Origin: Candidatus Bathyarchaeota archaeon
GTDB lineage: Archaea; Thermoproteota; Bathyarchaeia; Bathyarchaeales; Bathycorpusculaceae
NCBI GenBank assembly: GCA_963828195.1
Contig: CAWHDT010000005.1
Location: 160,001 to 224,000 of the forward strand
DNA: 64,000 nucleotides
Reading direction: 5' to 3'
Positions 3,394 through 64,000 of this stretch are shown piece after piece. Positions within the stretch are counted from its first letter, which is position 1; each line of letters begins with the position of its first letter. The notes under the pieces were generated by a model. That model saw nothing but the letters and a program-made list of their open reading frames with translations. It did not search any database and was not told where the DNA came from. The translations under genes and the position numbers were made by a program.

Positions 3394-4026
3394 CTATATT
3401 GCAGGCTCTGCGCTGATCTCTAGTGTCTGAAGCTGAAAACCTGTAATTTCCTCGTGACTATAAACACCCAAATAAATAGAAAGGGCTCCAGTATCTCCAA
3501 AATTTAGCCAAACATCGGACGCAGAAGGGGGAGGAAACCCAATTTCTATCAAATCAGTTGAGTTGACCACGTTGTTTCCACTGAATAATCCCGCCGTCAT
3601 GTAAACATAAGTTCCATTAAAGCCGTACCAATCGTTTGGTGACGGGTTCTGTGCTGAATAATCGTTGCGGAGTGTAACGTTGATGACAACACATGGTTCG
3701 TCGTGCCTGACAATCCAACCTCCCCCAAGTGTCCCGTTTGGAAGTTGATATTCGTCTGTTTGATAAGTGTCATATGGGTAAGAACTAGCTCTGATGTTTA
3801 CAGAAACTACGAAGATTTTGCTAGTGTTCCCTTCAAAAGGCAGATAATAGCCTGTGGCTGGTTGGATTGGACCGATAGAGGGCTTTACAACTTTTAAAAT
3901 CGATTCGTCGGTTTTTACAATTGTTAAAGACGATTCGTCAGTTCTCAGCACATAAATAGTTGCTCCCACCGCAACGGCTATGATTGCCGCGAGGAGCATT
4001 GCAAGGGCTTTTCTCCGAGTATCCAT
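3394..4026 (-). CDS. Hypothetical membrane-anchored or secreted protein
   Basis: 210 aa ORF with N-terminal basic plus hydrophobic anchor and a beta-rich ectodomain. Confidence 0.75.
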   Translation of the reverse strand: MDTRRKALAMLLAAIIAVAVGATIYVLRTDESSLTIVKTDESILKVVKPSIGPIQPATGYYLPFEGNTSKIFVVSVNIRASSYPYDTYQTDEYQLPNGTLGGGWIVRHDEPCVVINVTLRNDYSAQNPSPNDWYGFNGTYVYMTAGLFSGNNVVNSTDLIEIGFPPPSASDVWLNFGDTGALSIYLGVYSHEEITGFQLQTLEISAEPAI

Positions 4027-4420
4027 GGATAATGCTCACCGGTCCCAAAAAGTGCAATCAGAAATTTTTCTTGTTTTCATTCTAGTTCCATGCGCTAAAT
4101 TGGTTGTTTTCCTGTTTGTTATGTTTAGGGATATAAAATTTACTATTTTGAGCCACAAATTTTGGTCGCTCGCGCTAGTTCAAACGGATACAGTTTTAGA
4201 GCCTACGGTGCAAGCCGTTTAGGAATATAAAAAAAGATGACCTAATTTTAAAAAATCAGTGCTGACGTGGCTACGAATCCATAACTTAAATTGGAAGTGC
4301 GCAACAAGGATATTCTGGAGTTTTGTTGAACAGGTGTGAAAGCAGTGGGTGAAACGTGCACAGTTTATTAATGTCGTATGACTTACGATTCAAAACAGAA
4401 TACTTGGGGGTAGTAAAAAA

Positions 4421-4736: not shown

Positions 4737-6245
4737 TTACACCGTGGGCAGATTCGGGATGATTTGTTGAAGTTGATGTACAACCGGGTGGATTAGGTTT
4801 AGCACGATGCTCGGGAACAAGCCCAGTATTATCAGTGATCCGGCTAGGATGAAGATTGGAATAAGTATTCGTTTTGGCTCTTTTATCGGTGTTTCGTCTT
4901 TTGCGTTCTTTCCGTACATGACATAGATTAGCCTGAACAAGTAAGCAGTTTGCAGAACACTTGTCAAAACTCCAATAACTGCTAGCCAGCTTAGGTTTGC
5001 TTCTATCGCCGCAGTGAAAACCAAATATTTACCTATAAATCCCCCTAGAGGCGGAACACCCGCAAATGATAGCCCAGCTATCACTAAGGCTAAGCATACA
5101 AGCGGCATTTTCTTTCCTAAGCCTGAGAAGTCATCCATGCTTTTGAATCCGTGACTGTTTATGATCCCGATTGCCATGAAGGCGAGGGCTGTGGTTATGC
5201 CGCCGATTAAGAAGAAGTAGAGGTTGCCAAGCAAGCCAGTAGCGGTTACGCTTGATATTGCAACAAGGTTGTAGCCGACGTCTGCAACGCAGATATACGC
5301 CATTAAACGTTTAACGTCATTTTGTATCAGGGCGAACAGGTTGCCGACAATCATGGTGACCGCTGCTAAAACTGCTAGCATGATAGTCCAGTTTACGGTT
5401 GAGGGAAGTAAAACGTACAGGAGAACTCGTATGAGTATGTAGTAGCTGCCCTGGTCAATGAGGGCGGAGAGGAAGGCTGCTGATGGTGCGGGAGCTGCGG
5501 TGTAAGCGTCAGGTAACCAGAAATGGAAGGGCACAATTGCCGCTTCAATCGCGTAGCCGGCTGCTATGAATATGAAGGCTATGATAAGCAAGTGATTATT
5601 GCTCATAGTTGTTAAAGCCGACCCAACCCCCAAGTAGTTGAGGGTCCCCGTTAAACCGTAGACAATTGACATCCCAAGCATAACGAATGCTGAAGCGATG
5701 ATGACCATGATAAGATATTTCAGTGTGGCATTGATTGAAAACGCGTTTTTCTTAAACAGCATCAGGAAAGCTGCGCCTGCCGTTGCTATTTCCCAGAATA
5801 TGAAAAGCGTTAGCAGGTCGCCTGCAAGAACAGCGCCAAGTACGCCCGCGGTAGTCATCAGCATTATGGCGAAGTATCGTTCTGAGGGCCTGTCGTTTGA
5901 GCCAACGGAGAACACGGTGTAGGTTACAACTACGGCGCTAAGAGCCACTATGATTATTGACATGTAAATGGAGATGGCGTCTACCAGGAAGGCGCTTGAG
6001 AAAATTGATGAAGTAGTCCCGCTTAAGCCCAAAGTGACAATGCTCGGTGAGGGGACGCTGTAATAGCTTAGAGCTAAGTTAGCTACCCACAAACCTGTAA
6101 TTGCGAATACAGCTAAGAACCAGCCCAGGGTTAAGGCGGTCTTGTGATTGCTGTTTCTTATCAGCTTAAACACGGGGATAGTTAACAATGCTGCAATAGC
6201 AAGAGTGAATATGGGTAAGAGGACATCTATTGTTTCAATCATCAA
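4737..6245 (-). CDS. nuoN: Antiporter-like membrane subunit N (NuoN/FpoN-like) of Hfo-type hydrogenase
   Basis: LFIFWE, PFHFWLPDAY, AGVPPLGGFIGK; last gene of Nuo-ordered operon. Confidence 0.85.
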   Translation of the reverse strand: MMIETIDVLLPIFTLAIAALLTIPVFKLIRNSNHKTALTLGWFLAVFAITGLWVANLALSYYSVPSPSIVTLGLSGTTSSIFSSAFLVDAISIYMSIIIVALSAVVVTYTVFSVGSNDRPSERYFAIMLMTTAGVLGAVLAGDLLTLFIFWEIATAGAAFLMLFKKNAFSINATLKYLIMVIIASAFVMLGMSIVYGLTGTLNYLGVGSALTTMSNNHLLIIAFIFIAAGYAIEAAIVPFHFWLPDAYTAAPAPSAAFLSALIDQGSYYILIRVLLYVLLPSTVNWTIMLAVLAAVTMIVGNLFALIQNDVKRLMAYICVADVGYNLVAISSVTATGLLGNLYFFLIGGITTALAFMAIGIINSHGFKSMDDFSGLGKKMPLVCLALVIAGLSFAGVPPLGGFIGKYLVFTAAIEANLSWLAVIGVLTSVLQTAYLFRLIYVMYGKNAKDETPIKEPKRILIPIFILAGSLIILGLFPSIVLNLIHPVVHQLQQIIPNLPTV

Positions 6246-6254
6246 AGTTCACCT

Positions 6255-7808
6255 TTAGGTAATCGGACCGAACCTCACTGTTTGAATTAGATTTATGAAG
6301 AATGTCGGGTAGATCCCAACAAGAATAATCAGCACCACCAAGATAGCAAAGGATAGTTTCATGTAGTTTGAAACCTCAAAAGTCTTCTTCTCCTCGGCAC
6401 CTTCCGCGATTTCTTCACCCTCTTCGCCTTTGGGTAGACCTAGGAAAACTTTTGAAGTGAATCTCAGCATGTAAGCAAGCGAAATTACTGTAGCAATGAG
6501 CATAAGCGCAGTTGGTATAATGTAAAATGAGTCCACGTGGATAACTTGGAAGGCCCCGACAAATATTAGAAATTCGCTGATGAAGCACGCAAACGGCGGC
6601 GCTCCGCCAATACTTAATGCAGCTATGATTGAGGAAACCGCTGTGAACGGCATCTTGGAGGCTAATCCACCCATTTTGCGGATATCACGTTTTTCTGTTT
6701 GATGCATCACTCCGCCTGCGCCAAGGAAGAGAAGGCCCTTGCTTAAGGCGTGGCTGACAATATGCAGGACGGTTCCAGTTATTGCGAGGGATGAGACTAA
6801 GATGACGGCTGCTCCTGCTGCGACGTTTGATGGGAAGAGGGATAGCCCAAACATGATGTAGCCCATGTGGGCGATGCTTGAGTAGGCGATGAGCCGTTTT
6901 ATGTCAGTTGCAACTAACGCTATTAAAGAGCCAAAGAAAGCTGAAAGTACACCGATAATCGCTAAGGCATGCAAAAAGTCTGTTCCAAATGTTATTCCAA
7001 CGGAGGGGAAAACCATTCCCAGTGAAAGACGGAGAATTGCGTAAGCTCCCGCGCTGATAATGACACCGCTTAAGAGCGCTGACATTGGTGCTGGAGCTTC
7101 GCCGTGTGCGTCAGGCAGCCACATGTGGACGGGTATGACAGCCATTTTAACGGCGAACCCAGCGGTTAAGGCTATGATAATCCACTGGGCAATACCTACA
7201 TGCCCAAGTAAAGCTGTTTGTGCACTAAATATGTCGGTGGTTCCCGTTGTGAAGTAGATTGCGCCTATGCCTAAGAGTACGAAGACGGCTCCTGCATGGG
7301 TGTATATGAAGAATTTTAATGCTTGCTTGTATGAATCTTTGTAGCCCCATTCGCCTATGATGAAGAACGCTGGAACAAGCATTAGTTCCCAGCAGAAGTA
7401 GAACAAGATCAGGTTAGATGTTAAGAAGACCCCGACTAGACCAACTGAGAGCAGGCATAGCAATGCATAGTAAACGGGCAGATGCTTTTTTCCAGCCATG
7501 TAAGATATTGAGAAAATTGAGGCTACCACCATCAGAATTAGGCTCACAAGGGCGATGGAAACGCTTATGCCGTCTGCGAAAAGTGTAAATGAAGTATTTA
7601 TAACGGGTATCCATGTGTGGGGCTCAACGTACTGGTGAGATGAACTGTTAAGAATTGTTGGAACAGTCGTTAAGAGCAGCGCTATGTTAACCATGGCAAT
7701 GAGGGCAACAAATATTGCTGCAGCTTTCGGCGATTTTCTCCCTGTCAAGTAAACAAATGGAATGCTTAGAGTTGGAATCGCAAACACTGCTAGAAGAGTA
7801 AACGTCAT
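6255..7808 (-). CDS. nuoM: Antiporter-like membrane subunit M (NuoM-like)
   Basis: FYFCWELMLVP, KMAVIPVHMWLPDAHGEAP, DIKRLIAYSSIAHMG. Confidence 0.88.
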   Translation of the reverse strand: MTFTLLAVFAIPTLSIPFVYLTGRKSPKAAAIFVALIAMVNIALLLTTVPTILNSSSHQYVEPHTWIPVINTSFTLFADGISVSIALVSLILMVVASIFSISYMAGKKHLPVYYALLCLLSVGLVGVFLTSNLILFYFCWELMLVPAFFIIGEWGYKDSYKQALKFFIYTHAGAVFVLLGIGAIYFTTGTTDIFSAQTALLGHVGIAQWIIIALTAGFAVKMAVIPVHMWLPDAHGEAPAPMSALLSGVIISAGAYAILRLSLGMVFPSVGITFGTDFLHALAIIGVLSAFFGSLIALVATDIKRLIAYSSIAHMGYIMFGLSLFPSNVAAGAAVILVSSLAITGTVLHIVSHALSKGLLFLGAGGVMHQTEKRDIRKMGGLASKMPFTAVSSIIAALSIGGAPPFACFISEFLIFVGAFQVIHVDSFYIIPTALMLIATVISLAYMLRFTSKVFLGLPKGEEGEEIAEGAEEKKTFEVSNYMKLSFAILVVLIILVGIYPTFFINLIQTVRFGPIT

Positions 7809-7812
7809 TTCA

Positions 7813-9747
7813 TTACACACCTACCGTTAATATTAGTACCACAACGATTAGTATCAGGCCAACTATTCCTGCTGCAATGTAATTTTGAACGGTCGAGGAC
7901 GGTACCTTTTTCAGCTTTGAAGAGGTAAGCACAAACCAGCCTGCAAACGCGTTCAGCCCCAAATTCGCCTGATCTTCAACATGTTTAAGGCCGTCAGAAA
8001 ACTTTCCAAGTCCTCTTGCGAAGGCATAGTAAATGTCGTCAACGAAGTAGCCATGGTTTAGTATGGTTGCAATTGGGTTTGAACCGCCGCCAACACTTCT
8101 TATGCGCAGGGCGTTTTTGTAATATGCCCAGTACACAAGCAAACCAGTTGGAACAAGAATTGCAAGGAAGATTGGTGTTTCCAAGTCGGTGAAGGAGCCG
8201 AGGATCGAGATTCCAAGGCTTAAATGCATAAAGTTCTCGACCACAGTCATTGACAAGCCCCAGACAATGCATAATCCTGCAAGGATTGCTGCTGGGATCA
8301 GCATGACTTTTGGAGCTTCATGGGGATGCTGCTTTTCCAAATGCTCTGATTCTTTACCCATGAAAACTAGGCTGAACATGCGTATTACGTAGGCAAACGT
8401 AATGGCTGCTGTGGCGTAAAGCAGAATTGCCTGTATCAGACCTGCAGAAGTGCCTAAACTGCTTACGCTTGAGATAATCAAGCCTTTGCTGAAGAACGCG
8501 GCAAAAGGAGGCAGACCGCTTGTCGTTATAACCATTATACCCATTAAAACAAAGGTCACTGGCATTGCTTTCCTCAGCCCACCCATTAACCGCATGTCTC
8601 GCGTGCCAAGTGCGTGAATGATGCCGCCTGCGAGGAGGAATCCGAGACCTTCGAAGAAAGCATGGCTTACCATGTGGAATATACTGGCGAACCACCCAAT
8701 GGATGCCGCTCCCGTAACAGCTGCACCTAATGCAGCCATCATGAAGCCGATTTGACTAACAGTTGAGTATGCAAGGACTCCCTTGATGTCGGTTGTGGTT
8801 ATCGCCAGCGTAGCGCCGATAAAGGCTGTTATGACGCCTATCCAAGCAACGGTGGGGAACCAGGCTGGTTGAAGCGCGACGATTAAGGGATACGCTACTG
8901 AGGCTATGAGTATGAATCTTGCAAGAAGGTAGATACCTGCTTTAACCATTGTGGCGGCGTGAAGCAGGGCGCTGATTGAGGTGGGTGCTTCCATTGCGCT
9001 GTAGAGCCAAGTGAACAAGGGGAATTGAGCGGACTTAGCGAGGGCACCCCCCAAAACTAAGAAGAATACGGTGACAAGAAGCCCTGTATTGAGGGTTCCG
9101 GCTTTGGCGCCTGCCGTGAGGGCAGCTATTATTGCGCTGAAACTAAATGACCCGATTGCGTGTCCTGCAACAAGAGGTCCCGCGTAAAGTATGCCTATGG
9201 CTGCAAGCAGGGATACGTCGCCGATGCGGGTCATGATGAAAACTTTATTGCCTGCATTTATTGATGCGGGGCGTTTGTACCAGAAAGCAACTAACGCGTA
9301 GGAGCATAAGCCCACCATTTCCCAGAAAATAAACATTTGAAGCAGGTTATCTGAGATTACAAGGCCTATCATTGAGCCTATGAAAAGCAGAATGAGGAAG
9401 TAGTATCGTGTTAATCCTTCTTCGCCCTTCATGTAACCCCAAGAATAAATGACTATGATTAATGCAAAGAAGCCAACAAGGCACGTGAACAATACAGACA
9501 GCGGATCAATGTACACTCCGGCACTGATGCCTGCAATCCAGGGAATTGTCGATTCTGTCGCTGACCCGTTACCTGAAAGGATGCTGGGTATAAGTGAAAA
9601 TGCCAAGCCCGCGGTTACGGCTGCGACTGCTATTACATAGTAGTTTCGTATTTTGTCGCCTTTTTTTGCGATTATTGGAACGAACAGGCATGCAACAAGG
9701 GGGAATATCCAAACAAGCCATGCGGAAACAATATTATACGTTATCAT
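7813..9747 (-). CDS. nuoL: Antiporter-like membrane subunit L (NuoL-like)
   Basis: FIFWEMVGLCSY, KSAQFPLFTWL..AMEAPT.ISALLHAATMVKAG. Confidence 0.9.
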   Translation of the reverse strand: MITYNIVSAWLVWIFPLVACLFVPIIAKKGDKIRNYYVIAVAAVTAGLAFSLIPSILSGNGSATESTIPWIAGISAGVYIDPLSVLFTCLVGFFALIIVIYSWGYMKGEEGLTRYYFLILLFIGSMIGLVISDNLLQMFIFWEMVGLCSYALVAFWYKRPASINAGNKVFIMTRIGDVSLLAAIGILYAGPLVAGHAIGSFSFSAIIAALTAGAKAGTLNTGLLVTVFFLVLGGALAKSAQFPLFTWLYSAMEAPTSISALLHAATMVKAGIYLLARFILIASVAYPLIVALQPAWFPTVAWIGVITAFIGATLAITTTDIKGVLAYSTVSQIGFMMAALGAAVTGAASIGWFASIFHMVSHAFFEGLGFLLAGGIIHALGTRDMRLMGGLRKAMPVTFVLMGIMVITTSGLPPFAAFFSKGLIISSVSSLGTSAGLIQAILLYATAAITFAYVIRMFSLVFMGKESEHLEKQHPHEAPKVMLIPAAILAGLCIVWGLSMTVVENFMHLSLGISILGSFTDLETPIFLAILVPTGLLVYWAYYKNALRIRSVGGGSNPIATILNHGYFVDDIYYAFARGLGKFSDGLKHVEDQANLGLNAFAGWFVLTSSKLKKVPSSTVQNYIAAGIVGLILIVVVLILTVGV

Positions 9748-10061
9748 TATTGTTCAGCCTCGGTATCCGTTTTTTCCTGCATTTTTAGTATTTCATTGAT
9801 GTTACTTGTTCCGTACTTTTTGGTTACGATAACCAGCAACGCCAGAACTACCCCGCTGACGGTGGTATCGGTGGAAAACGCGAGTATCAGAAAAGCTTGC
9901 CCTAAGCCTTGACCCATGGTGGAAGCAAGCATAACAAAATTCAAAGTTGCCGCAGTAGCGATTAGCTCTATTGAAATGAAGACTTTCAAGAGTTGCCGAT
10001 TAGTCAGCAAGCCGTAGACGCCGATTGCCAGCATTACAAGTGACAATATGACAAAGTCCAT
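9747..10061 (-). CDS. nuoK: NuoK-like small membrane subunit
   Basis: Three TM segments, IGVYGLL...SIELI; operon position. Confidence 0.85.
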   Translation of the reverse strand: MDFVILSLVMLAIGVYGLLTNRQLLKVFISIELIATAATLNFVMLASTMGQGLGQAFLILAFSTDTTVSGVVLALLVIVTKKYGTSNINEILKMQEKTDTEAEQ

Positions 10062-10993: not shown

Positions 10994-11977
10994 TTACACC
11001 AGCGGGAAAACCCATGTTTTCAGTGCTACAGTTAACATTAGTGCCAATATTGCTGCGGGCAAGAGTATTCTCCAGTTTGCTGACAACACTTGGTCTATGC
11101 GCAATCTCGCAAAAAGGGTAGTTATGTACTCAGTAACTATTACGACCGCCAACAGCTTAAGAACAAACCACAAGGAATACCAGAACGCAGGCAATCCAAA
11201 GAACACGGGTCCATATGGCCCGCCGAGGAACAATTCAACCACCAGAGCCGCTCCGAAAACAATCTGCACGTCTCGGGTTAAATGGAGGAAGGCTAATTTG
11301 GCGCCTGTGTATTCGGTTGTTATTCCGCCGACCAATTCGCTTTCTGCATCAGGGACGTCAAAGGGGTCCTTTTCCAGCTCGGCCTGCATAACTATTAGGT
11401 ACAGCACGAAGCCATAGGGCGCTAAAAGTATGTATGGAATTGCTTGATGGGCTATGGCGAATATGCCTAAGGTTCCCGCGAGAAATGCGGGTGTTAACGC
11501 AAGAATGAAAAGAGGTATGTCGTATCCGAGAAACTGGGTTAACACTCTTGCTGAACTGATAGTGCCGTAAGGATTGCATGATGCCCAACCTGAAAGGAAC
11601 AGCAGAAAGCTAGCGATGGTTGAGAAGGTCAAAATAATAATTAAGTCACCGTTAAACCCTGTTGTGGAGAGGACGCTGGCACCGTCAATAGGCAAGAAGC
11701 ATATGGCGAAAACCATAACTGTGAACGCTAAAAGGGGTGCAAACTGGAAAACGGTTCTTTTAGCATCTCGTGGTTCAATGTCTTCTTTTGTTAATAGCTT
11801 TATTAAGTCCGCTACTGGCTGAAAAAGTCCGCCGGGTCCTGCGACCATTGGTCCAACGCGGTTTTGTAGGCGTGCTTCGATTTTCCGTTCTACCCAATCG
11901 CAGAATAAGGTTAAAAGTAAAATGAATGTGAAGCCTGGGAAAATTAGGATTCGGAGGATTAAATCGAAGTCAATCAT
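10994..11977 (-). CDS. nuoH: NuoH-like membrane subunit
   Basis: ERKIEARLQNRVGP, QPVADLIKLLTKED, PFDVPDAESELVGG. Confidence 0.92.
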   Translation of the reverse strand: MIDFDLILRILIFPGFTFILLLTLFCDWVERKIEARLQNRVGPMVAGPGGLFQPVADLIKLLTKEDIEPRDAKRTVFQFAPLLAFTVMVFAICFLPIDGASVLSTTGFNGDLIIILTFSTIASFLLFLSGWASCNPYGTISSARVLTQFLGYDIPLFILALTPAFLAGTLGIFAIAHQAIPYILLAPYGFVLYLIVMQAELEKDPFDVPDAESELVGGITTEYTGAKLAFLHLTRDVQIVFGAALVVELFLGGPYGPVFFGLPAFWYSLWFVLKLLAVVIVTEYITTLFARLRIDQVLSANWRILLPAAILALMLTVALKTWVFPLV

Positions 11978-30436: not shown

Positions 30437-30691
30437 GTGGCATCTCTTTCCGAAAAAGAAGCCGCCGAGAAAAGAGAAAATATACAAAAACGTTTTTGGA
30501 ATCAAGTTGGCGCCGTCGAACATATTAACTTGCCCAAACTGGAAGACGCCATAAGAAAACAATTCAATACGACGGATGACAGGTTCATTCAAACACAGAT
30601 TCGACTGATGCAGACTGAGGGAAAGATAAGAGTCCAAAACAATGTTAAAGTGTGGATTAAACAGCCAAACATCGATCTGCATGAAATCTAA
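30437..30691 (+). CDS. Small hypothetical protein, possibly winged-helix
   Basis: GTG start after AGGTGA RBS that overlaps the upstream stop; helix-helix-EGKIRV-hairpin pattern. Confidence 0.65.
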   Translation: MASLSEKEAAEKRENIQKRFWNQVGAVEHINLPKLEDAIRKQFNTTDDRFIQTQIRLMQTEGKIRVQNNVKVWIKQPNIDLHEI

Positions 30692-40074: not shown

Positions 40075-42849
40075 ATGCAAATTGCTAAAAACAGAATTGC
40101 AGCTATTGCGATTGCAGTATTTTTAACACTCTCAATGTCAGCTTCAATGATGTTTGTACCCTCTGTTAGCGCACACAGTCCGCCATGGAACCTTCCAACG
40201 TTCGCGTACATACAGGTCTCGCCTAACCCGATAGGTGTCGGTCAAACGGCGACTGTATACATGTTTCAAACCAACACTTATGACAATGCAGCTGTAGTAA
40301 ACAACTATAGATTCCAAAACTACGAGCTCATCATTACTGCACCTGACGGCACAACATCCTCAGTGAATTTTCCGTATATATCTGACCCAACATCAAACCA
40401 GGCTTACAGTTGGACACCTACCCAAGTCGGCACGTACAGCTTTAACTTTACTTTCCCAGGACAAACACTAACCACCAGCAATGACCTCTCAACCTCAGCG
40501 TACATCAATGATACTTACCTGCCCAGCTCCGCATTTTGCACATGCACCGTCCAGCAACAAACAATCCCGATATTAGGCAGCGCACCACTTCCAACCAGCT
40601 ACTGGACACGCCCAATATACGGGGAAAACACCAACTGGTACACGATTTCGTCAGACTGGCTCGGCTCAGGCTCAGCAGGCTACGGCGTCAACGCAGCAGG
40701 CTCCGATGTACCCCCAGGAGGAGCAGTGGGACCTCAAACTAGCCACATCATGTGGACCTACCCGATTGACATGGGCGGAGTTGTAGGAGGAAACAACTTT
40801 GTCACACCAGGAACCGCGTATTTCGAAGGGTCCGCATACAACGGCAGATTCACCAATCCAATAATAATCGACGGATTCCTATACTACACTGAACCAATAT
40901 CGTTCTCAGGCACCACTGCCGGACCAACTGTCTGCCAAAATCTGCAAACAGGACAAATCATTTGGAGCAGCACTCAAGTGCCCGCCTTATCCTTCGCCTA
41001 CGTCTATGACCTAAATGACCCAGACCAACACGGAGTTTACCCACCAATACTCTTTACATCTGGCTTTGCCCGAGCTTTTGATGCATACACGGGAGACCCA
41101 CTTTTCAACGTGACCGGCGTTCCAACAGGCACAGCAATTCCTGGTCCCTCAGGAGAACAGCTGAAACTCATATTGGCTAACGACGGCAACACTACCAACC
41201 CACAGATGTACCTAAGTGAATGGAACTCCTCCAGACTTTGGGAGACTTTTGAAAACCCATGGACCCTTGCAGCCGTCACTAACCCAACACTTTACAACGA
41301 CTCCACGAGTACTGGCGCTGTTTTAACCACTGGCCAATCACAAGAGGCAAACGTAACTCAGCCAGCGGTAGGCTCTTTCGCAGGAAATAGCAACGACCAA
41401 CCAGCTACCTACAACTACTTAGTCTACGCAAACGTCGTAAACTCGACTAGTCCACTGTACAGTTATGACTATAACATTTCGCTGTCTTGGGCTAACACTG
41501 TTACACCAGTACCAACGATAGTTGCAGCTTGGGAGGGCAACATGATGCTTTGCATAAGCGGCTCTTACCCAGCGTTAGACGGCTCACAAACACCCTACAC
41601 ATACTACGGCGTCAACCTTAACGCGTCTGTGGGTCCAATCGGCTCATTGCTATGGAGCAATACTGTTCAACCTGCACCAGGCAACGTCACTGTCAGCTAT
41701 TGTGGCCCAAGCAACGGCGATCCAACGTACGGTGTCTTCGTTGAATTCCACAAGGAAACCATGCAGTTTGTAGGATACAGCATGGCGACGGGAAAGCAAA
41801 TTTGGGGTCCAATCGGCAACTATTCAGATGACCAGCTGATGTACTATAACATCGGATACAACAGCGGCGGCGACGAATCAGGAGCTTCAGTTGCTTACGG
41901 CAATCTCTACTACGACGGATTCGGAGGAGTAATGTCCTGCTACAGTTTAGCAACAGGAAACCTACTGTGGACTTACGGCAACGGCGGCCCAGGCAACAGC
42001 ACCAGCAGCGGCGGCATGACATATCCCGATGGTTACTATCCAACATCCATATTCGCTATCGGCAACGGAATAGTATACACAACAACTACTGAGCACACAG
42101 TGGAAAACCCGATTTACAAGGGCGCATTGCAACGTGCAGTAAACGCAACAAATGGACAAGAAATCTGGACCTTAAGCGACGTCACATCTGAAGCAGGTTC
42201 ACCATCCGGAGCTCTAGCTACAGGCGCTATCGCAGACGGCTTTTCCGTAACCCTAAACGGCTATGACAACCAAATTTACTGCGTCGGCCAAGGACCAAGC
42301 GCCACAACGGTTTCAGCACCAGATGTAGCAGTACCGTTCGGAACCCCCGTACTAATCAAGGGCACAGTGATAGATGTATCCGCTGGCACACAGCAAACAG
42401 AGCAGAAAGGCGCATTTCCAAATGGAGTTCCAGTTGCATCTGACGCATGCGAAAGTGCATGGATGAGCTACGTTTACCAGCAGCAGCCAATCCCAACCGA
42501 CTTTACCGGTGTACAAGTGAACATAAACGTCATCGACTCGAACGGCAACTACAGAACCATAGGCACCGCAACAACTACTTCAGACGGCACCTACAGCCTC
42601 ACGTGGACGCCTGACATCGCCGGCAACTACACAGTGATCGCAAACTTCGCAGGAACCAACGCTTACTGGGGATCAACAGCCCAAAACGCTTTCACAGTAA
42701 TGCAGCCAGTGTCACCAACCGCCGCACCTACAGCATCACCCACATCTGCTGCAGACACGTACTTCGTTCCCGCAATCGCTGGACTATTCGTCTTAATCAT
42801 CATAGTCTTAGCTGTAGTCGTACTGCTGATGTTCAGAAAACGACCATAA
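40075..42849 (+). CDS. Large cell-surface protein with PQQ-like beta-propeller and Ig-like domains
   Basis: Signal peptide, VSPNPIGVGQ, PLPTSYWTRPI, AVNATNGQEIW, C-terminal TM plus RKRP. Confidence 0.85.
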   Translation: MQIAKNRIAAIAIAVFLTLSMSASMMFVPSVSAHSPPWNLPTFAYIQVSPNPIGVGQTATVYMFQTNTYDNAAVVNNYRFQNYELIITAPDGTTSSVNFPYISDPTSNQAYSWTPTQVGTYSFNFTFPGQTLTTSNDLSTSAYINDTYLPSSAFCTCTVQQQTIPILGSAPLPTSYWTRPIYGENTNWYTISSDWLGSGSAGYGVNAAGSDVPPGGAVGPQTSHIMWTYPIDMGGVVGGNNFVTPGTAYFEGSAYNGRFTNPIIIDGFLYYTEPISFSGTTAGPTVCQNLQTGQIIWSSTQVPALSFAYVYDLNDPDQHGVYPPILFTSGFARAFDAYTGDPLFNVTGVPTGTAIPGPSGEQLKLILANDGNTTNPQMYLSEWNSSRLWETFENPWTLAAVTNPTLYNDSTSTGAVLTTGQSQEANVTQPAVGSFAGNSNDQPATYNYLVYANVVNSTSPLYSYDYNISLSWANTVTPVPTIVAAWEGNMMLCISGSYPALDGSQTPYTYYGVNLNASVGPIGSLLWSNTVQPAPGNVTVSYCGPSNGDPTYGVFVEFHKETMQFVGYSMATGKQIWGPIGNYSDDQLMYYNIGYNSGGDESGASVAYGNLYYDGFGGVMSCYSLATGNLLWTYGNGGPGNSTSSGGMTYPDGYYPTSIFAIGNGIVYTTTTEHTVENPIYKGALQRAVNATNGQEIWTLSDVTSEAGSPSGALATGAIADGFSVTLNGYDNQIYCVGQGPSATTVSAPDVAVPFGTPVLIKGTVIDVSAGTQQTEQKGAFPNGVPVASDACESAWMSYVYQQQPIPTDFTGVQVNINVIDSNGNYRTIGTATTTSDGTYSLTWTPDIAGNYTVIANFAGTNAYWGSTAQNAFTVMQPVSPTAAPTASPTSAADTYFVPAIAGLFVLIIIVLAVVVLLMFRKRP

Positions 42850-49463: not shown

Positions 49464-49522
49464 TTGCAGGCGGACAACCGTGTCCGTTGGGATGTGGTCC
49501 TTAGGGACTGAACCGTAAGCAA
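49464..49522 (+). promoter_or_regulatory. Structured 5' leader of eL15 (putative ribosomal-protein leader with K-turn-like motif)
   Basis: ttgc/gcaa closing stem, hairpin gcggac-aaccgt-gtccgt, gg-gatgtg-gtcc-ttag-ggac-tga-acc. Confidence 0.6.
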
Positions 49523-49547: not shown

Positions 49548-50162
49548 ATGGCATACAAATACATCGCGGAGGAATGGGCTCAACCCGAAAAATCCTTCGT
49601 TGAAGAACTCATGCGGGAAAGATTAGTGCAGTGGCGAAAACAGCCCTCAACACTTCGCATTGAGCATCCGACAAGGCTTGACCGCGCAAGAAAACTAGGC
49701 TACAAAGCCAAACAAGGCTTCGTCGTGGCAAGAACAAAAGTGCGCAGAGGCGGCCTACGAAAAAAACGCCCACGCTCAGGCAGACGACCCAAACGCATGG
49801 GAGTCGCCAAATTTAAACCAGCAAAAAGCATAAGGCTTATAGCTGAAGAGCGGACAGCAAAGCATTTCCCAAACCTGGAAGTTCTTAACAGTTACTGGGT
49901 AGGCGAAGACGGAAAGCACAAGTGGTTCGAAGTTATTCTGCTTGACCCAAAGAGCCCAGTGATAAAAACCGACAAAGACGTCAACTGGATAACGGAGAAG
50001 CAGCATACAAGCAGAGTCTTCCGAAGCTTAACAAGTGCAGGCAAAAACGTCAGAGGTCTAAACCACCGAGGAGCAGGAGCAGAAAAAGTAAGACCAAGCC
50101 ACCGCAGAGGAGCAAGAAAACGAGCACAGGCAACAACCAGAAAACCAAACCCAGGGCGATAA
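49548..50162 (+). CDS. rpl15e: 50S ribosomal protein eL15
   Basis: [30 protein letters not shown]. Confidence 0.98.
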
Positions 50163-62277: not shown

Positions 62278-62581
62278 ATTCTTCCCCTACCGTACAAGAG
62301 AACTATGCGAGACTAATTAACCATTACCCCAAAAATTATGGATAACCAACCTAAGACACCGCGTAGATCCAAAAACTAAATGAGAATTAGGAATCCGCCG
62401 TTTGCCACCGCACATAAGCATCGAATTATGCGATTTATCTTAACTGTACATTGCTTCTAATGAGCCGCCTAAACGCGCAAAAAGATTTAGTTTTCAAGCT
62501 TGTTCAATGGTTGTTTCGTCGGGAAAGATTATACTTAAATAGTATATTGAAACTGAAAAGTGGATTAGGGCTTTATGATGT

Positions 62582-62658
62582 GCCGTCGTGGCTCAGCCCG
62601 GTAGAGCGGCTGGCTGTTAACCAGTCGGTCAAAGGTCCGAATCCTTTCGACGGCGCCA
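62582..62658 (+). tRNA. tRNA-Asn(GUU), intronless, CCA encoded
   Basis: Acceptor stem gccgtcg/cgacggc; D arm gctc/gagc; anticodon arm gctgg-ctGTTaa-ccagt; T arm aaagg-tccgaat-ccttt. Confidence 0.96.
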
Positions 62659-62764
62659 CTCCCGCTTCCACAAACTACCGTTTTTATGAAAAGTTCCCCT
62701 TCAATGATCTTTTTGTTTATGTCACAACCATCTTAAAACTGCTATTGTATATAGAAATTCATAT

Positions 62765-62782
62765 ATATAGAATTCTCTATAT
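62765..62782. repeat. 18-bp inverted repeat, left arm
   Basis: atatagaattctctatat is the exact reverse complement of 63967-63984. Confidence 0.8.
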
Positions 62783-62801
62783 TTGAGGTCGGCGCAAAAC
62801 A

Positions 62802-63956
62802 ATGGTGGTCGTAGGCAAACCTCAAAAAGAAGTTATCGATCGGGAAGAAGAGATAGAAAAACTTGTTAAAAGCCTGTCAGATCCCTCTAAACAAGTTAAT
62901 TATGCGCTAATTGGTCCTCGACGCATCGGGAAGACAACGATACTTCTGAAAGTCAAAGAGCAGCTTGAAAATAACAAAATAATTGTCGCTTACGTGGATC
63001 TCTCAATTTACAAGTTTTCTCCTTATGATTTTGCGCAAAACATAATGTCTCAGGTCACTCGGGCTTATGCCAAAGATCTGGGCAAGACAGAAAAAGCTTC
63101 AACCATCATAGCTAATCTCTTAAAAACTTTGACGAAACTAAAGAAACTCCGTTTAACGTTAGAGCCTTCCATAGATGAAACAGGACAATTCTCCATCAAA
63201 ATAAGACCCGAAATAGAAGAAACCCAGGATTACAAGAACATTTTCCTCTTAGCTTTTGATTACTTCAATGAAGTTTCAAAAAAATGTGGCAAGCGAATAG
63301 TGATAATGATTGATGAGTTTCCCAGCATAATCGAATTTAAACGTTATTCTACTTTAGAAGCGATTACGGAGATTTTTAGAAGCGTTCTTGAAAACAGGGA
63401 AAACGTGCAATATGTCGTCAGCGGCTCTAGAGTTCATTATATGAGGGACATTCTTGGGAAGGGAGAAAGCCCATTATTTGGGCACTTTGTCATTGTAGAA
63501 GTTGGATCATTGCCTGAAGAATATGCAGTTCAATTATACATGCAAAGTGCTAAATCGACCAGAAAAGAGGCGGAAGAGGCATGGAAAATACTAGGGGGTC
63601 ACCCATATTACCTCATAATGTTGGCTGAAAACCGCAAACCCGATGAATCCGTAGAAGAAACATACGAGAGAATTCTCACAAGTTCCTCCGGCGCACTAAA
63701 CTTGTATGTTAACTACATTTTGAAAGATGATTTAGGCTCCTCAACAAAAGAAGCACGCCTCATGCGAATCCTACAAGCAATCTCACGGGGAAACAACACT
63801 TCAGCCCAAATCGCCAAACAAGTAAACCTGAAACTTACTAGTTTACCATTCTATCTTCAAGAGCTAGAAAAATACGACTTGATCGCGAGAAAAGAAGGAA
63901 AATACCAAATTAAAGATAAGATCGTCAATGATTATTTTACGAAGCTGCAAGAATAG
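62802..63956 (+). CDS. Archaeal P-loop ATPase (ATPase_2/STAND-like) with C-terminal winged helix
   Basis: IDREEE, Walker A GPRRIGKTT, Walker B IMIDEF, VSGS, GGHPYYL, C-terminal HTH. Confidence 0.9.
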   Translation: MVVVGKPQKEVIDREEEIEKLVKSLSDPSKQVNYALIGPRRIGKTTILLKVKEQLENNKIIVAYVDLSIYKFSPYDFAQNIMSQVTRAYAKDLGKTEKASTIIANLLKTLTKLKKLRLTLEPSIDETGQFSIKIRPEIEETQDYKNIFLLAFDYFNEVSKKCGKRIVIMIDEFPSIIEFKRYSTLEAITEIFRSVLENRENVQYVVSGSRVHYMRDILGKGESPLFGHFVIVEVGSLPEEYAVQLYMQSAKSTRKEAEEAWKILGGHPYYLIMLAENRKPDESVEETYERILTSSSGALNLYVNYILKDDLGSSTKEARLMRILQAISRGNNTSAQIAKQVNLKLTSLPFYLQELEKYDLIARKEGKYQIKDKIVNDYFTKLQE

Positions 63957-63966
63957 ATTTTTCTAT

Positions 63967-63984
63967 ATATAGAGAATTCTATAT
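63967..63984. repeat. 18-bp inverted repeat, right arm
   Basis: atatagagaattctatat, starting 11 bp after the ATPase stop. Confidence 0.8.
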
Positions 63985-64000
63985 GTCTAAAAAAGGCCAC

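Follow-up and report, generated by a model that had tools for sequence, protein, structure and literature searches.

Paired palindromes flanking an archaeal ATPase/winged-helix gene are candidate operators for its autoregulation

A 64,000-nucleotide stretch of the genome of a Candidatus Bathyarchaeota archaeon (assembly GCA_963828195.1, contig CAWHDT010000005.1, positions 160,001 to 224,000; hereafter the window) carries a gene whose 384-residue product joins a predicted ATPase domain to a C-terminal winged helix. The gene is enclosed by two copies of a 30-bp double palindrome, one located immediately upstream of the start codon (S_up) and the other beginning inside the stop codon (S_down). 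From the sequences of these sites and of their relatives we propose, with moderate confidence, that they are private operators of this gene, wherein the upstream pair of palindromes would lie over its own promoter, composed of a transcription factor B recognition element (BRE) and a TATA box, and the 3′ pair would take part in looping. Autoregulation is the more secure component of this proposal and looping the less secure one.

An earlier examination of the same DNA (the sequence-only reading) had described an exact 18-bp inverted repeat around the gene, and the positions of its arms and their distances to the ATG and the stop codon all hold. That observation is incomplete rather than wrong: each arm belongs to a larger unit, a double palindrome of 30 bp, and the downstream unit starts within the stop codon. 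The features concerned are:

Positions 62751 to 62780, no strand assigned: the S_up composite, ATAG-aaattc-ATAT-at-ATAG-aattct-CTAT, established by pattern and alignment and found in all seven Bathyarchaeia loci described below.

Positions 62765 to 62782, forward strand: the upstream 18-bp arm, ATATAGAATTCTCTATAT, which comprises the second palindrome of S_up extended by 2 nt at either end and lies 19 nt before the ATG (62802).

Positions 62802 to 63956, forward strand: the open reading frame (ORF) for the 384-aa ATPase/winged-helix protein, with Pfam ATPase_2 at residues 12 to 274 and HTH_45 at residues 321 to 373.

Positions 63953 to 63982, no strand assigned: the S_down composite, ATAG-attttt-CTAT-at-ATAG-agaatt-CTAT, whose first half-site contains the stop codon in seven of seven loci.

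Positions 63967 to 63984, reverse strand: the downstream 18-bp arm, which comprises the second palindrome of S_down extended by 2 nt at either end.

The two arms are exact reverse complements. The downstream arm begins at the 11th base past the TAG stop codon (63954–63956) and ends 16 nt before the end of the window, and the next gene of the source genome lies beyond it. When up to three mismatches are allowed, the 18-mer has four matches in the window, all of which are the two arm locations read on both strands; two places give four matches because each arm is nearly palindromic, as had been recognized. Shuffled sequences are expected to contain 0.02 such matches, and none of 100 shuffles reached four. 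The related half-site TATATAGAAATTC that had been reported at 62748–62760 is also present, and the flanks additionally align with each other as a direct repeat (D1; 32 nt, 75% identity).

Placed in register, both composites read ATAG-N6-[A/C]TAT-AT-ATAG-N6-CTAT, wherein two 14-bp palindromes with centers 16 bp apart are joined by a TATA-like CTATATATAG segment. The palindromes of S_up span 62751–62764 and 62767–62780, the TATA-like center spans 62760–62770, and the first spacer is A-rich and BRE-like. In S_down, the stop codon is formed by the last three bases of the first ATAG. The consensus for a single palindrome is ATAG-RAA.TTY-CTAT. The inner palindromes of the window, ATAGAATTCTCTAT and ATAGAGAATTCTAT, each carry one mismatch relative to ATAGAA-NN-TTCTAT, and they are exact reverse complements of one another because these single mismatches fall in opposite arms. 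That the 18-bp match is exact in this genome is incidental, and the inverted repeat is a by-product of two copies of one composite site.

Relatives of the gene were obtained as 11 loci from one protein search of genome contigs. Six are from Bathyarchaeia (L001–L006; 59–89% protein identity to the ATPase of the window) and five are from Nitrososphaeria (L007–L011; 41–48%). The source genome itself is not one of the 11, and “the seven Bathyarchaeia loci” denotes the window plus L001–L006. Flanking DNA of up to about 10 kb was examined on each side of these loci, for a total of about 178 kb with the window included. The sequence-only reading had asked whether homologous ATPases carry the same flanks, and indeed both composites occupy fixed places in seven of seven Bathyarchaeia loci, with S_up ending 16–25 nt before the ATG and with the TAG stop codon held in the first half-site of S_down. 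In L006, the most distant copy, the composites are slightly degenerate and include ATTG and CCAT half-sites; both copies from L006, along with the downstream copy of L004, fail the strict pattern. MAFFT alignments of the flanks of the seven loci place the invariant columns upstream of the gene exclusively in the half-sites, the center and the ATG. Invariant columns downstream are again the half-sites and the center, plus two columns in the last codons of the gene. The DNA outside the sites is unalignable among these loci. Among the 28 palindromes, the A, T and G of ATAG are each kept in 28 of 28, as are the A and T of CTAT, and the spacer fits RAA.TTY.

In the DNA examined, the motif is also private to the gene. 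Matches to the strict double motif occur nowhere except at the gene, both in the window (two of two matches) and in L001–L005 (nine of nine places), and the simpler ATAG-N6-CTAT pattern has five matches in the window versus 0.5 expected, three of which are at the gene. A weight-matrix scan of the 178 kb placed all matches of at least 13 bits on the 28 sites, bar one at L002:832. This matrix was built from the same 28 palindromes, and therefore only the lack of other matches is informative. The further copies of the motif for which a search had been suggested were not encountered, as the composite occurs nowhere else in the window and the flanks of the loci. Concerted evolution of the four sites within each genome was considered separately and rejected, because the mean spacer distance among the four sites (2.57 within genomes versus 2.80 between genomes) was matched or bettered by 416 of 5000 label shuffles and is not significant.

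The location of S_up is consistent with a role at the promoter. Its center, ATATATATA, lies at −41 to −32 relative to the ATG, and the TATA-like boxes of other genes in the window are mostly found at −55 to −30. The first spacer of S_up is AAAnTn, which is BRE-like, in six of the seven Bathyarchaeia loci. In archaea, the distance from the TATA center to the transcription start is usually 26–27 nt. By this spacing, the predicted start would be situated about 10 nt 5′ of the ATG, with the first palindrome positioned over the BRE side and the second between the TATA box and the start. S_up is thus a dyad-symmetric element that overlaps the BRE/TATA-like core promoter of the gene and is kept among its orthologues, as looked for in an autoregulatory operator. 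Archaeal repressors usually act by blocking TATA-binding protein (TBP) and transcription factor B (TFB), or RNA polymerase, at the core promoter.

The orthologues from Nitrososphaeria provide the main reason for assigning the sites to this protein. In five of five of these loci, an upstream palindrome, CATATATG, replaces ATAG-N6-CTAT. It is present as two exact copies 16 bp apart in four of the five and as one exact copy in L011. In L010, a third copy with one mismatch is located 16 bp farther upstream. About 20 nt separate the end of the last copy from the ATG, and an exact copy downstream of the gene is absent from all five loci. The recognition helix of the protein, predicted by model and alignment to comprise residues 348–357, reads SSLP[FY]YLQELE in Bathyarchaeia versus TDLPKLLTTLIE in Nitrososphaeria. 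Thus, the site and the predicted recognition helix change together between the two classes.

L001 (10184–11551, forward strand) also encodes a paralogous PF01637 ATPase that is fused to DUF234 and shares 26% identity with the protein of the window. Just before its start, GATTATCC occurs twice, 16 bp apart, around TTTATA. This similar pair of sites supports the operator layout, although as a single case it is only suggestive. Past the stop codon of this paralogue, a 10-nt match to the T-arm of tRNA-Asn, GAATCCTTTC, is located at 11564–11573 and may be due to chance.

The domain assignments of the protein encoded between the sites are as follows. The ATPase_2 family (PF01637, described by Pfam as “ATPase domain predominantly from Archaea”) is matched with 70.3 bits versus a cut-off of 33.2, over profile positions 2–225 of 225, and the C-terminal winged helix (HTH_45, PF14947) is matched with 28.8 bits versus a cut-off of 25.5. 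The Walker A motif is GPRRIGKTT and the Walker B motif is IDEF. Across 28 orthologues, G38, R40–K44, T46 and D171 are invariant and E172 is nearly so. An AlphaFold2 model (mean predicted local distance difference test score of 76.4) has three helices and a two-strand wing at residues 314–370. In a Foldseek search, the top two matches to this model are 2qen and 2fna (E values of 7e-14 and 2e-13, respectively; template modeling score of about 0.6; about 20% identity), followed by archaeal Orc1/Cdc6 proteins (2qby, 1fnn and 1w5t) and NB-ARC/STAND proteins. A sequence search of the PDB with the protein returned just weak Walker-motif matches to Clp/Hsp104. Pfam scanning of the protein revealed neither a nuclease domain nor a sensor domain, and its C terminus is HTH_45. 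A homodimer prediction with two copies of the protein (alignment A1) gave neither support nor a verdict and is used neither way here. Searches recover about 90 protein clusters at 59–92% identity, the named members of which are all Bathyarchaeia, and length is stable at 383–384 aa for most of the 90 clusters at 59% identity or above.

In the mechanism we propose, a dimer of the gene product would occupy each palindrome, with binding mediated by the C-terminal winged helix. Upstream palindromes occupied in this manner would cover the BRE side and the stretch from TATA to start, and the bound protein would keep TBP/TFB or RNA polymerase off and so repress its own gene. The 3′ pair would offer two more dimer sites about 1.2 kb away, and the 5′ and 3′ pairs may be bridged cooperatively via nucleotide-dependent oligomerization of the ATPase domains to form a loop around the gene. 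Such bridging to the 5′ pair, in the manner of phage lambda CI at OL and OR, is most likely the use of the 3′ pair. That the sites serve as operators for autoregulation or looping had been one of two possibilities raised previously. The dyad symmetry, the overlap with the promoter, the conservation in all seven loci, the privacy of the motif and its co-variation between classes all speak for it, whereas binding by the winged helix is a prediction.

Several observations weigh against this proposal. The sample is small and partly redundant, as the window, L001 and L005 are close relatives among the seven Bathyarchaeia loci. The sole grounds for assigning the sites to this protein are adjacency and co-variation, and the spacers are not significantly more alike within genomes, so that an extra sign of co-evolution is missing there. 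Simple autoregulation leaves the purpose of the 3′ site unexplained, and the orthologues from Nitrososphaeria do without it. The distance between the composites, 1193–1205 bp in seven of seven Bathyarchaeia loci, varies without keeping helical phasing. The 3′ center is TATA-like in most loci and could be a promoter, and in L005 it is the sole TATA-like element before a copy of tRNA-Asn. Finally, the neighborhoods of the gene are wholly different, and remnants of tRNAs or integrases lie nearby in four of the seven loci, which leaves room for a mobile module.

The possibility that S_down is a second promoter, directed either onward to a tRNA or small RNA or antisense into the gene and perhaps controlled by the same protein, is a live alternative, although an unlikely one in our estimation. 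The center of S_down is CTATATATAG in the window, L001, L004 and L005, the site is symmetric and could therefore act in either direction, and the 53 nt that separate S_down from the tRNA-Asn copy in L005 hold no other TATA-like stretch. Against this, L002 and L003 have CTATACATAG as the center and L006 has CCATATATTG, and the half-sites stay. The fact that the half-sites are kept in L002 and L003 despite the changed center suggests that they, and not a TATA box, are selected there. The downstream alignment contains no conserved sequence 3′ of S_down. Among the six loci, the next ORF is convergent in four (L001, L002, L003 and L006), two of which have ORFs with Pfam support, and the gene is followed by tRNA-Asn in L005 and by a short integrase fragment in L004. 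With this variety of downstream features, S_down does not serve any conserved co-directional gene as its promoter. Rfam searches found nothing at the composite sites of the window, and permissive scans of L001 and L005 returned only the tRNA of L005 (47.5 bits) and noise.

Two further roles for the 3′ site were tried and rejected. A terminator does not fit, as a T-run is present solely in the first spacer of the window. Long-range RNA pairing between the arms was rejected because full complementarity of the spacers is found in the window alone and the upstream arm is probably located 5′ of the point at which transcription begins.

The gene follows a tRNA, as had been pointed out. We also weighed a portable site-gene-site module of tRNA-integrating elements, either as cargo at the edge of an element or as a minimal element moved in trans, wherein the composites would serve the element in, for example, the control of replication, partition or excision. 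We consider such a module distinctly unlikely. The tRNA features of the window are:

Positions 62582 to 62658, forward strand: an intact tRNA-Asn (GTT), detected by ARAGORN and by Rfam (RF00005, 66.4 bits).

Positions 62659 to 62685, forward strand: the trailer of this tRNA up to a T-run, which is kept after the tRNA-Asn fragment upstream of the L005 orthologue.

The sequence-only reading had suggested a search for the duplicated tRNA 3′ end that an integration event would leave. Such a duplication is found in the two closest relatives of the window, L001 and L005, where it flanks the gene and involves the core of the tRNA rather than the 18-bp repeat. Specifically, fragments containing the 3′ core of tRNA-Asn, CCTTTCGA(CG), enclose the orthologous gene in these two loci. 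In L005, the upstream 3′ fragment (9836–9879) carries the same trailer as the window and lies about 100 nt before the site; the tRNA and trailer of the window match it with 91% identity over 44 nt (blastn-short, E value of 9e-8). On the other side, a near-intact tRNA-Asn (11235–11309, 47.5 bits) is located 83 nt past the last codon, with one mismatch in the acceptor stem and the same TGATGT leader as the tRNA of the window. The fragments in L001 are at 5296–5315 and 6524–6543 upstream and at 7897–7911 downstream. These repeats of the core on both sides of the gene show that the tRNA is a recombination hotspot in this lineage.

Several additional observations concern these tRNA sequences. Positions 5100–6545 of L001 form a 1.4-kb stretch upstream of the orthologous gene that is rich in tRNA remnants, including a tRNA-like 3′ end near 5160–5200 and a degenerate tRNA-Asn-like stretch near 6275–6335 that carries the CTGTTAAC anticodon loop. 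A DUF433 antitoxin gene (5957–6205, reverse strand) is situated amid these remnants, and the region looks like the product of repeated integration and decay. In L005, an ORF for a TumE-family toxin (9554–9859, reverse strand; 60.3 bits) starts in the tRNA-Asn 3′ fragment, and its first codons are the reverse complement of that fragment. Elsewhere in the window, a run of 13 nt identical to the tRNA-Asn 3′ end, TTCGACGGCGCCA (30508–30520, reverse strand; E value of 0.34), is located in or near a 117-aa ORF without a family, and it could be due to chance or be an old attachment-site remnant. A near-palindrome, TTATACTTAAATAGTATATT, at 62530–62549 is about 35–50 nt before tRNA-Asn, is unrelated to the ATAG-N6-CTAT sites and is probably the TATA region of this tRNA.

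Other evidence for a portable module comes from the surroundings and composition of the gene. Within about 10 kb, neighbor genes common to any two Bathyarchaeia loci were not found, even at 89% protein identity. L004 contains a truncated tyrosine-integrase ORF (3819–4115, forward strand; 98 aa; Phage_integrase at 23.5 bits, below the cut-off of 27.1) that lies between the ATPase gene and a tRNA-Cys (4298–4370, reverse strand) about 830 nt downstream, and this fragment is probably the remnant of an integrated element. The gene is somewhat AT-rich, as had been claimed, with a GC content of 38.8% against 44.6% for the rest of the window, and its GC content is below that of its own locus in 10 of 12 loci.

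These observations are countered by what the module lacks. Neither the 57 ORFs of the window, which do not include an Orc1 either, nor the 41 neighboring ORFs of the loci include a transposase, an invertase or an intact integrase, and the L004 fragment is the sole trace. Likewise, the 1.4–1.5-kb segment between the tRNA repeats of L001 and L005 has no integrase. No tRNA or tRNA fragment was found near the gene in L002, L003 or L006, and no tRNA-Cys fragment was found upstream of the gene in L004. Target duplications beside the composites are also absent, as the outside bases differ between the two sides in all loci. The best-matching pair of repeats has an inverted arrangement in the window but a direct one in L002 (16 nt, ATAGAAACTTCTATAC at both ends), and the two palindromes of S_down are identical in L003. 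This lack of a conserved orientation fits symmetric dimer sites and is unlike transposon ends or inversion sites. The earlier alternative, in which the arms act as recombination sites that delimit a mobile or invertible cassette, is therefore not supported, given the variable orientation, the missing target duplications and the missing recombinase. The associated idea of a cassette array or defense island is not seen in the relatives, whose next ORF is convergent in four of six loci.

The composition and relationships of the gene copies also speak against such a module. The GC content of the gene tracks that of the host, and the copies from Bathyarchaeia and Nitrososphaeria form separate identity groups, as expected under vertical descent; together these suggest mainly vertical descent. 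The length and sequence of the protein are also very stable. Moreover, the genomes may be too diverged for synteny. The only similarity between the window and L001 outside the ATPase in the sampled DNA is a pair of secreted-type surface proteins of about 925 aa with Ig-like and beta-propeller matches (window 40075–42849, forward strand; L001:2207–4984, reverse strand), and these sole candidate orthologues are 39% identical. A related notion is in our view improbable. It holds that an Orc1/Cdc6-like AAA+/winged-helix protein of Bathyarchaeia always moves together with its own sites at either end of its gene, recurs at tRNA integration hotspots and, instead of acting in transcription, carries out an initiator, partition or maintenance function for a minimal integrating element or a domesticated remnant of one.

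We give equally little credence to the idea that the sites are bound by an unlinked factor, such as a global regulator or a variant of TBP/TFB, with the ATPase gene as a mere target. Its appeal lies in the TATA-like core within the motif and in the fact that adjacency alone ties the sites to this protein. In addition, L002 encodes a stand-alone HTH_45 protein (8931–9227, forward strand; 55 bits) that adjoins ribosomal protein S10 and lies about 770 nt before the ATPase gene. A global factor should have other targets, but none were detected in the 178 kb. A stand-alone HTH_45 neighbor is present in only one of six loci, and the motif changes between classes together with the predicted recognition helix.

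We regard as highly improbable an initiator-replicator pair in which an Orc1/Cdc6-like AAA+/winged-helix protein is flanked by its own sites as in bipartite bacterial origins around dnaA, an arrangement described for Helicobacter pylori. Origin recognition boxes have polarity, which these palindromes lack. Orc1/Cdc6 proteins are the best fold matches after the two PF01637 structures, and a review describes coinciding matches to Arch_ATPase and Cdc6 domains in putative Methanococcales initiators (PMC4009838). Nevertheless, the likeness is at the level of the fold only, as the ORC1-type NCBIfam model NF001624 scores 15.7 bits versus a cut-off of 354. No AT-rich unwinding stretch exists between the sites or next to them beyond the TATA center of 8–10 bp, the sites flank a 1.15-kb coding region, and the cumulative GC skew has no turn at the end of the window, a weak indication given that only 64 kb is covered.

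A chance match in low-complexity DNA, to which the TA-rich and nearly palindromic arms might invite, is rejected as vanishingly improbable given the shuffling result and the same architecture in six other genomes, and a contig-end artefact is excluded because an identical protein is located on a 954,115-bp contig and the architecture is shared by those six genomes. The rest of the window is an ordinary archaeal chromosome, with a complex-I-like operon, ribosomal proteins, RNase P subunits and pyruvate:ferredoxin oxidoreductase. One RNA feature in it is a match to the Rfam eL15 leader (RF03144, a “Euryarchaeota” model; 43.5 bits) at 49471–49519 on the forward strand, just before the eL15 gene (49548–50162).

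Returning to private operators as the favored reading, its components can be compared with known systems. The closest structural relatives of the protein are SSO1545 (2fna) and PABY2304 (2qen), PF01637 family members that share the order of ATPase core and then winged helix and that differ in sequence (about 20% identity). Neither a DNA site or function for these two proteins nor a functional account of PF01637 was found in the open-access literature. Like the STAND regulators MalT and IniR, the protein joins a nucleotide-switched ATPase to a DNA-binding domain, whereas those are bacterial activators with a sensor domain and a LuxR-type HTH, and the protein described here is without a sensor domain. 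The ATPase domain of mycobacterial IniR was modeled on SSO1545, and IniR was tested as a direct activator of the iniBAC promoter (PMC5760070). The PADLOC model PDC-S27 is matched in its ATPase part (64.9 bits, profile positions 65–301 of 474). PDC-S27 is described as an ATPase fused to a PD-(D/E)XK nuclease (PMC12988326); the present protein instead has a C-terminal winged helix, and its Pfam scan revealed no nuclease domain.

The direct repeats of the tRNA-Asn core that flank the gene in L001 and L005 resemble those of integrative elements at tRNA 3′ ends. Unlike such elements, the 1.4–1.5-kb segment contains no integrase, the 18-bp repeat is not the repeated core, L002, L003 and L006 are without a nearby tRNA, and L004 has a tRNA-Cys only, without a flanking repeat. 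For genome annotation, this case indicates that a gene beside a tRNA may be enclosed by an exact long inverted repeat without being part of a mobile cassette.

Archaeal repressors whose binding sites cover the BRE/TATA region or fall between the TATA box and the transcription start include MDR1, LrpA and Phr, and a YtrA-type regulator is another example. As with these proteins, the palindromes described here coincide in part with the core promoter of the gene that encodes the regulator, and repression would block TBP/TFB or polymerase. MDR1, LrpA and Phr differ in being small one-domain regulators, and we know of no repressor of this type with a conserved second pair of operators at its own stop codon. 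Indeed, searches of open-access text found no precedent for a pair of operators that incorporates the stop codon of its own regulator gene and is kept across a class. Few uncharacterized archaeal proteins are as common as PF01637 ATPases with a winged helix, and this group of orthologues supplies a precise predicted target (ATAG-RAA.TTY-CTAT, paired) and a fixed geometry, such that DNA binding and the nucleotide switch become testable.

The repressor CI of phage lambda offers the nearest parallel for the arrangement as a whole. It forms a long-range loop at OL and OR around cI. In both systems, two adjacent dyad-symmetric operators are present at each of two places 1–2.4 kb apart (about 1.2 kb here), the regulator gene lies between them, and one operator set overlaps the promoter of the regulator. 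The lambda system is bacterial and sigma-70 dependent and employs a small HTH repressor without an ATPase. In the archaeal case, the 3′ set overlaps the stop codon, oligomerization would use an AAA+/STAND-like domain, and looping is what we infer. If looping is true, the paired palindromes would represent a clear archaeal counterpart of lambda-type long-range autoregulation.

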